Part shown: positions 44,590-45,908 of the stretch, one piece after another
Numbering within the stretch: position 1 is the first letter of the stretch
Layout: each line of letters begins with the position of its first letter
Program-made: the position numbers and the translations under genes
The notes under the pieces: generated by a model
Seen by the model: only the letters and a program-made list of their open reading frames with translations
Told to the model about the DNA's origin: nothing
Database searches by the model: none
Assembly: GCF_041886205.1 (NCBI RefSeq)
Contig: NZ_CP169029.1
Origin: Escherichia coli
GTDB taxonomy: Bacteria > Pseudomonadota > Gammaproteobacteria > Enterobacterales > Enterobacteriaceae
DNA: 64,000 nucleotides
Reading direction: 5' to 3' (one strand)

Positions 44590-44976
44590 TTATACAATTA
44601 TCTGATTGATTTTTAATATATCTTTTCTTAAATCATCGTTAATATCTGACGGTTCTAGCTGGTTTATAAGTTGCCTTATTTGGGTAAAGGTACTTTTCTG
44701 ATCTTTTAGATCTTCTCCTTTTATCGTTGATAAAGCTGCAATTAGTTCACCATCGTAATATTCACCCGCTAACGGCTCTTTAGTTAGAACTTCCAACACT
44801 CTTGGCATCAACTGATCAATACATAAATTTTGTCGGATAGCGCGGCAAAGATCTTCCACTGTTAACTTTTCAAGAGGCACATCTATGATACGTTCGAACC
44901 AGAGTTCAAGCGGTGATTGTTGCTCAGGCTCTTTTGTCATATTGATGTTTCCAATCAATTTACGTAAGGTAATCAT
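44590..44976 (-). CDS. cdiI: Orphan CdiI immunity protein, cognate to the GYGI-tailed orphan toxin
   Basis: 128-aa ORF whose ATG overlaps the toxin stop (ATGA) at 44973..44976. Confidence 0.6.
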
Positions 44977-45908
44977 ATTCCATATCCTTTCAAGGCTGAT
45001 TCTATTTTATTAATAGCATCTGTTGCTCTGCCATACGCAGCCTGAGCTTCAGGATTGTTGACGTTTTTCAACGTATCCGCATGATTTCTTAATCCTCTGA
45101 GCGTATTTTGCATTTCCTGCATATGATCCCAATATCCTCCATTCTCTTTAGGAACTGGCTTACCATCCATATCCTTGAGAGTTCCAATAATATCATGATC
45201 TTTCAGAGCATTTTTTATAGTGTTATCGATCTTCTTAATCGCACTTTCTTGCTTCTGATTAAGCTTATCTACAGGTTTTTCATTTTGCTGCTTAGGATCA
45301 TTTTCCGATGGTGGTGGTGTACCGGTTCCTGAGCCGGAACCGCCCAGTTCTACTTTTTCCGCATCGGTCAGATCTTTACCGATATTCGGATTCGAGGCAG
45401 CCCCGGAACCGTACTTATCATGCAACGAACTGAGATACTTAGTAGTGATCTCATCATTACCCATCATTTGCAGGGTAATCAGATGCTCCAGTTCATCGGA
45501 GGTCATCCTGTCGGCCATATCCTTGACTGCCGCCCCGGCAAGCCCGGCCATGCCCGCTTTCGCCCCGATTTCTAGCAACTGCTCTGCAACTTTAGTCCTG
45601 CAAGGTGCTGCGACCGCACAGCCTCTGGCAACCAGACTCAGCGCATTATTCTCAACAACGTTCTTCCCGGCACCAGCTCCAGCAGCCGCGCCAGCCACAT
45701 CGCCACTGGCAATGCCGCCGGCCATACCCGCTGACAGCGTTGCCAGCGTGCTTACAGTTTGCTTCTGATCTTCACTGAGGTCTGACTGCTTCACGCCCGG
45801 ATACAGCATTCCGATCGCTCTGGCTGCCAGTTCTCCTGTTGCTGAGCCGACAAAGGCGCTATTTTTCTGTACCACCGACAGCGTGGCATTCACCACTGCA
45901 TGAGTTCA
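44973..45908 (-). CDS. Orphan cdiA-CT module: pretoxin/VENN region plus C-terminal toxin ending in GYGI (UPEC536-type, CysK-dependent tRNase class)
   Basis: Frame opens directly after a stop with no ATG; ...[14 protein letters not shown]... VENN motif; pre-VENN homology to the full cdiA; C-terminal ...ALKGYGI. Confidence 0.7.

Follow-up and report, generated by a model that had tools for sequence, protein, structure and literature searches.

The CDI locus and its orphan modules

The window, by which we mean the whole stretch of 64,000 nucleotides of Escherichia coli DNA that was analysed, harbors a CDI locus whose genes are arranged on the minus strand in the order cdiB, cdiA, cdiI, orphan 1 and orphan 2 (Table 1). 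The CT of the resident CdiA, from VENN onward, belongs to the EC3006 type (PDB 6VEK/6CP8), which is a tRNA-Ile nuclease with PtsG-dependent entry. A six-frame scan of all 64 kb found three VENN motifs, all of them on the minus strand, one each in the resident cdiA, orphan 1 and orphan 2. The second orphan, a 536-type fragment, is the subject of this study.

Table 1. Features of the CDI locus and of the 536-type orphan module, with positions counted from the first nucleotide of the window
Feature	Coordinates	Strand	Remarks
cdiB, outer-membrane transporter	58153..59919	minus	ShlB, POTRA_2 and POTRA_3 domains
Resident cdiA	48361..58140	minus	full-length, intact, 3259 aa; VENN at 49363-49374
Resident cdiI, EC3006 type	47879..48364	minus	whole-length match to PDB 6VEK chain I and 6CP8 chain C
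Orphan 1	46985..47650	minus	VENN at 47639-47650; glycine-rich CT; almost no pre-VENN sequence
80-aa hydrophobic ORF	46753..46995	minus	overlaps the end of orphan 1
Small ORFs, including the 80-aa hydrophobic ORF	46467..46995	minus	from the ORF listing
DUF2569 membrane-protein gene	45931..46452	minus	precedes the orphan slot in many E. coli strains
Orphan cdiA-CT (orphan 2)	44973..45905	minus	80 pre-toxin (PT-VENN) codons, VENN, entry domain, tRNase domain, GYGI tail
Recombination junction	45739..45773		35 bp common to both parents; 83-117 nt upstream of VENN
VENN codons of orphan cdiA-CT	45645..45656	minus	sole exact identity (12 nt) with the resident cdiA
GYGI codons and stop	44973..44987	minus	overlap the cdiI start
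cdiI-536	44590..44976	minus	Pfam CdiI_3; 128/128 identical to CdiI-536 (PDB 5J5V chain C)
IS66-family transposase C-terminal remnant and spacer	44144..44589	minus	ORF 44182-44559; travels with the 536-type block

The CT of orphan 1 gave no match in Pfam or NCBIfam. The 80-aa hydrophobic ORF that overlaps its end is likely the immunity gene of orphan 1, and the pair resembles a toxin acting on membranes and a small immunity protein located in the membrane. The DUF2569 protein carries an N-terminal CxxC...CxxC arrangement, and its gene adjoins orphan CT fragments in the EC93 plasmid, O157:H7, STEC434 and JML285; it is possibly an orphan immunity gene. The NCBIfam scan, which covered the orphan CT, CdiI-536, the DUF2569 protein, orphan 1, the resident CdiI and two small ORFs, returned no family at E <= 0.01.

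The locus lies in an island that is rich in IS elements and contains T6SS remnants, katG and a helicase gene, and positions 28000-42120 of the window are 100% identical to strain JML285. A lone ORF at 34143-34445 on the minus strand adjoins a frameshifted ISL3 transposase and has no toxin fragment left beside it; the annotation of JML285, whose sequence is identical there, names it a contact-dependent growth inhibition system immunity protein, and it is probably what remains of a further orphan module. Between 39307 and 42515 on the minus strand there are a TssA/VasL-like T6SS remnant (459 aa) and a UvrD/PcrA-like helicase ORF (595 aa), both uninterrupted. The latter is called "nuclease-related domain-containing DEAD/DEAH box helicase" in related genomes, and the JML285 copy is cut by IS100. 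If the annotation of the identical JML285 DNA is followed, the 27515-33313 segment on the minus strand carries additional copies of genes of housekeeping type, for an OmpC-like porin, cytochrome b562 and the catalase-peroxidase KatG.

The reading frame of orphan 2 is open on the minus strand from 45905 to 44976, ends with a stop at 44973-44975 and comprises 310 codons. An in-frame TGA at 45906-45908 directly precedes it. The earlier note had placed an orphan toxin at 44973-45908 with no strand given, and this interval is bounded by two minus-strand stops, the one that precedes the frame and the one that ends it. In the ORF listing the gene appears as 44973..45896 on the minus strand, with a product of 307 aa from a GTG at 45896, which is the earliest possible start and lies three codons into the open frame. 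There is no ATG start, and no Shine-Dalgarno-like sequence was seen ahead of the GTG when the DNA was read by eye; an internal Met (ATG) is codon 33 of the 307. No TPS or FHA region, the secretion and filament parts, is encoded, and Pfam recognized PT-VENN and Ntox28 only. With these features and its place downstream of an intact cdiB/cdiA/cdiI set, the designation as an orphan, which the earlier note had proposed, proved correct.

The product ends in ALKGYGI, as had been read before, and a six-frame scan of the whole 64 kb found GYGI followed by a stop only here. The fragment lies on the same strand as the cdiBAI cluster and downstream of it (59919 to 44590), and it appears, from its DNA, to have neither initiation signals nor TPS/FHA regions. 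The cognate cdiI follows directly downstream, and other strains carry this module joined to a full-length cdiA. The fragment is a true orphan cdiA-CT/cdiI module, of the class described in 2011 by Poole et al.

Identity of the toxin and of its immunity protein

Residues 81-307 of the orphan product, from VENN to the end, matched PDB 5J5V chain B (tRNA nuclease CdiA, UPEC536) at 226 of 227 positions with E = 9e-148, and among all PDB chains searched the same identity was found to 5J43 (chain F) and 8ZYC (chain B), with E about 1e-147. Such a value, with one mismatch in 227 residues, excludes chance as the source of the match. The earlier note had predicted a CysK-dependent tRNase, and had made this depend on a nuclease domain resembling that of the UPEC536 CT; the resemblance extends over nearly every residue. 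On the orphan ORF, the Pfam model PT-VENN (PF04829) was strong (E = 3.9e-16). The Ntox28 model was marginal on the orphan CT (i-Evalue 0.007), so the toxin assignment rests on identity to the solved toxin and not on the Pfam model.

The sole mismatch is at CT residue 128, which is Thr in strain 536 and Pro in the window (T128P), through one base at 45275. This site is at the extreme edge of the ordered toxin domain (127-227), ahead of the first helical region (134-163). Pro128 is also found in the full-length cdiA of E. coli strain 1105, whose toxin region is identical to the orphan CT in all 227 residues and whose cdiA is annotated by PGAP as complete, without pseudogene flags. T128P as an inactivating change was considered and rejected, since the same residue occurs in this complete gene. 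The His that was replaced in 8ZYC (H178A) is present in the orphan CT.

It is reported that CdiA-CT-EC536 consists of an entry domain in CT residues 1-126 and a toxin domain in residues 127-227 (PMC11724271). The former is mobile and is not seen in the structures. In the orphan, this entry domain is identical to that of 536, and a further match was found in the CdiA-CT of E. cloacae (4NTQ_A; residues 82-205, E = 1e-41); an FtsH-dependent entry route is common to the 536 and E. cloacae CdiA-CT (PMC7690452). Entry of CdiA-CT-EC536 into the target cytoplasm needs FtsH (PMC7690452; PMC11724271), and by identity with this protein the orphan CT would be expected to use the same route.

Previous investigations have demonstrated that CdiA-CT-EC536 is a latent anticodon tRNase, whose GYGI tail mimics the tail of CysE and enters the active site of CysK, and that deletion of tail residues abolishes CysK binding (PMC7690452; PMC11724271; PMC5562914). 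As the orphan has this identity in sequence, the encoded toxin should have the published properties of CdiA-CT-EC536, and a CysK-dependent tRNase activity may be expected of it. All the defining features of this toxin family and of the orphan-module class that can be read from a sequence are seen in the window. The toxin, its activation by CysK, its immunity protein and the concept of the orphan module are already published, and the proteins are structurally solved.

The immunity protein encoded in the window does not differ from CdiI-536 at any position. The start codon of cdiI (ATG, 44976-44974) overlaps the Ile codon and the stop of the toxin as a 4-nt ATGA, and AAGGA is found about 10 nt upstream of this ATG, within the K-G-Y codons. 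No terminator-like site was found on the minus strand from 48361 to 44590, that is, from the resident cdiA to the orphan cdiI. The counts from promoter and terminator scans of 44000-48500 were at the level of shuffled sequence (11 vs 8.3 +/- 2.8 and 3 vs 3.6 +/- 1.9, respectively), and these chance-level counts carry no weight either way beyond the terminator absence just noted.

A published precedent is orphan o1 of EC93, which is likewise a start-less, VENN-containing relative of the 536 tRNase with its own cdiI, behind a resident cdiBAI (PMC3150448). In that strain the orphan region was co-transcribed with cdiA and CdiI was made, while the orphan CT protein was undetected; the orphan CdiI was expressed and protective (PMC3150448). 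The o1-type orphan on plasmid pECWJ-3 (locus L011, 3004-3684) differs from ours in several respects. Identity is 76% for the toxin, which has GHGI in place of GYGI at its end, and 36% for CdiI, and the fragment has almost no pre-VENN sequence, compared with 80 codons in the window. Poole et al. also noted that the CdiI of EC93 o1 did not stably bind the near-cognate 536 toxin (PMC3150448). The window comes from neither EC869 nor EC93: its resident CT is of the EC3006 type, and the EC93 plasmid locus (L010) has a cdi region that differs from it.

Low-level translation of the toxin from the in-frame GTG at 45896 or from the internal Met is possible, as judged from the reading frame. If CT protein were made in this way, it could form with CdiI and the CysK of the host a self-acting toxin-antitoxin pair, that is, an addiction module stabilising the island, and a ternary complex of CysK, CdiA-CT and CdiI has been documented in producer cells (PMC7690452). 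We consider this to be most improbable. No ribosome-binding site was seen before either of the two candidate starts, the homologous orphan CT was undetectable in EC93 (PMC3150448), and the sequence is no different from a plain cdiA 3' end.

Origin and distribution of the module

A block of 1630 bp (44144-45773) is 99.75% identical to strain 536, with four differences, three of them in the IS66 remnant and the fourth being T128P. It contains the IS66 remnant, cdiI, the CT and 117 nt before VENN, and the same IS66 remnant follows cdiI in strain 536. In the 536-type island a VasL fragment is also present after the IS66 remnant. Compared with the CdiA-CT/CdiI of strain 536 (5J43, 5J5V, 8ZYC), the module has the same entry domain, His178, GYGI tail, CdiI and downstream IS66 remnant. 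In strain 536, however, the CT ends a full-length secreted cdiA of about 9.7 kb, whereas in the window it is a 310-codon start-less fragment behind a different cdiA. The first ~44 pre-VENN codons also come from another orphan lineage, and show 24 substitutions and two gaps against 536 within the first 45 residues.

Rightward from 45739, over the region compared (to 48400), the window is 99.0% identical to STEC434. As the 536-type and STEC434-type similarities overlap by 35 bp (45739-45773), the crossover is placed inside the pre-toxin domain. STEC434 has the same DUF2569 gene and pre-VENN slot, followed by a truncated CT fragment that lacks VENN. Elsewhere, among the matches listed, O157:H7 and other strains have an o11-type DNase CT in this slot, and SMBL, RSHH22, M8 and SK6988 have a different CT there. 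The EC869-type arrays and the O157:H7 o11 slot share the DUF2569 gene and the pre-VENN fragment with the window, at 96% identity down to window position 45715, but the slot of those strains carries a Zn-dependent DNase CT (CdiA-o11), whereas the predicted type in the window is a CysK-dependent tRNase. Modular replacement near VENN in orphan arrays was shown by Poole et al. (2011, Fig. S4; PMC3150448); the junction in the window differs from that pattern in lying slightly upstream of VENN. We suggest that the module arrived recently, by one crossover in the pre-VENN (PT) coding sequence of an existing orphan and a second one in or beside the IS66 remnant.

The 536-type CT/cdiI was found in 209 of 5426 complete E. 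coli genomes (~4%), at an identity of at least 99% and once per genome. In the 60 of these 209 that were listed, it lay mostly under features named cdiA or long hemagglutinin/two-partner-secretion protein. The junction of the window was covered in none of the 5,426 complete genomes with three different queries. An exact-protein look-up found the 307-aa product on six contigs, in draft or raw assemblies. The same arrangement was seen in GCA_902847875.1, which is 99.75% identical to the window over 8.3 kb, in GCA_048111545.1 and in Logan run SRR29303315.

At the argF-argR site of EC11 and Z142-6, the 536-type module is likewise an orphan that follows a different cdiA; both strains show the same toxin frameshift, close to CT residue 148, and have kept cdiI intact. 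The annotation of GmM062 has the same pattern and its match is one base shorter than the query, so that its 536-type orphan is probably also frameshifted. These strains share the CT and cdiI with the window (at least 99.7% DNA identity) as an orphan behind an unrelated cdiA/cdiI, but their chromosomal site and upstream junctions are different, and the toxin of EC11 and Z142-6 is frameshifted while the copy in the window is intact. The frameshifted loci are at 5384-6315 in EC11 (L012) and 3484-4178 in Z142-6 (L006), and in EC11 the fragment was merged by PGAP into an 'IS66 transposase' pseudogene.

Two other candidates were rejected as orphan copies. The 'plasmid unnamed3' of ECE170 is a linear contig that cuts a 536-type cdiA, and the sequence of 1EC187 is a 5'-truncated cdiA and not an orphan behind another locus.

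The flanks of the block are fragments of IS66 and IS110, and this raises the question of whether the module is neutral debris that IS-associated recombination recently left in a mosaic island, with the toxin fragment and cdiI both idle. The near-identity to the donors, which leaves no time for selection, and the rarity of the arrangement among the genomes searched are consistent with such an origin. Against it, the coupling signals of cdiI are intact, and the gene is co-oriented with the upstream operon with no terminator-like site between. The orphan CdiI of EC93 was both expressed and protective (PMC3150448), the 536-type toxin is common enough in E. coli for immunity to matter, and cdiI is the part that is kept when the toxin decays. 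We therefore regard idle debris as unlikely.

Probable role of the module and the question of a reserve toxin

Taken together, the data very probably describe a recently recombined 536-type orphan module with a complete but silent toxin and an expressed, protective cdiI. This explanation builds on the results given above for identity, anatomy, junctions and distribution. The toxin fragment would encode the complete CdiA-CT-EC536, with an FtsH-dependent entry domain and a tRNase domain that would stay inactive until the GYGI tail is inserted into the CysK active site of the target cell. Because the fragment has no start-codon context and no secretion or filament part, the toxin is most likely silent and undeliverable in this strain. 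The cdiI gene, with its own ribosome-binding site and a start inside the GYGI codons, is probably reached by transcripts that read through from the cdi genes upstream. A silent toxin beside an expressed cdiI would parallel EC93 orphan o1. CdiI would shield the cell from neighbours deploying the 536-type toxin. Protection by CdiI-536 against such neighbours is most likely the current function, and the immunity gene is most likely the working part of the module.

The earlier note proposed that the toxin is kept in reserve, and the reservoir hypothesis itself was put forward by Poole et al. (2011; PMC3150448). In this reading, recombination could load the orphan onto the resident cdiA, and the strain would exchange its EC3006-type toxin for the CysK-dependent 536-type toxin. 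The ORF of the orphan toxin is unbroken and retains VENN with 80 pre-VENN codons, and an orphan CT was shown to work when fused to CdiA (PMC3150448). Turnover at VENN also occurs in a close relative. In GCA_048111545.1 (L007 1242-2524; window 49356-49372), a 1283-bp CT/cdiI cassette is placed exactly at the VENN of the resident cdiA and is bounded by a 17-nt repeat. The CT of this cassette is glycine-rich and ends in KLKDSGGK, and the EC3006-type CT has been displaced to an orphan position, where it now starts with AENN. This assembly shows a direct snapshot of orphan formation by displacement in a near-identical locus.

On the other hand, the pre-VENN DNA of the orphan is 55% identical to the resident cdiA over 261 nt, and the longest in-register exact run is 12 nt, which are the VENN codons. 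For RecA-dependent exchange, identity over about 25 nt or more is required. Upstream of VENN, homology to the resident cdiA that would be enough for recombination, which the reserve model needs and which does not define an orphan, was not found. With so little shared DNA, the strain has little means of using a reserve at this locus. Moreover, a simple crossover would delete cdiI-EC3006 and orphan 1 and would leave the cell sensitive to its siblings, as argued in PMC3150448, and in another lineage the orphan toxin is frameshifted with an intact cdiI. The idea of a reserve thus stands in so far as the toxin is intact and exchange at VENN does occur in a relative, and it does not stand with respect to the 12-nt identity at the resident gene and the decay of the toxin elsewhere. 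On balance we judge it to be rather unlikely in the window. A second cdiA with a matching pre-VENN region, outside the 64-kb window, would strengthen it.

A fully intact toxin ORF would also fit selection for the toxin itself. The intact state is not evidence of such selection, because the coding part of the block differs by 0-1 bases from full-length copies and is too young for decay. A related reading treats the slot that follows the DUF2569 gene as a site dedicated to exchange, in which toxin/immunity blocks are swapped inside the PT-VENN region and not at VENN, and takes the intact 536-type toxin to be under selection as a ready-to-load cassette. This seems quite unlikely to us. If true, the cassette could move, for instance following a tandem duplication, to a cdiA whose PT region matches, either at another place in the genome or in a recipient strain. 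In a weaker form of this reading, CdiI-536 would let the strain survive alongside 536-type ExPEC strains.

Returning to the recently recombined module with a silent toxin and a protective immunity gene, three details are new, namely where exactly the module is placed, the position of its junction within the PT domain and the contrast between intact and frameshifted copies in different lineages, and their significance beyond correct annotation is small. In annotation pipelines, the ORF would be better labelled as an orphan cdiA-CT fragment than as a free-standing toxin gene. The presence of an unmutated 536-type orphan in an EC3006-type CDI locus shows that ExPEC-type and other E. coli lineages have recently exchanged CDI modules. 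The intact copy in the window, set beside the frameshifted copies with intact cdiI elsewhere, lends support to immunity as the durable benefit of orphans.
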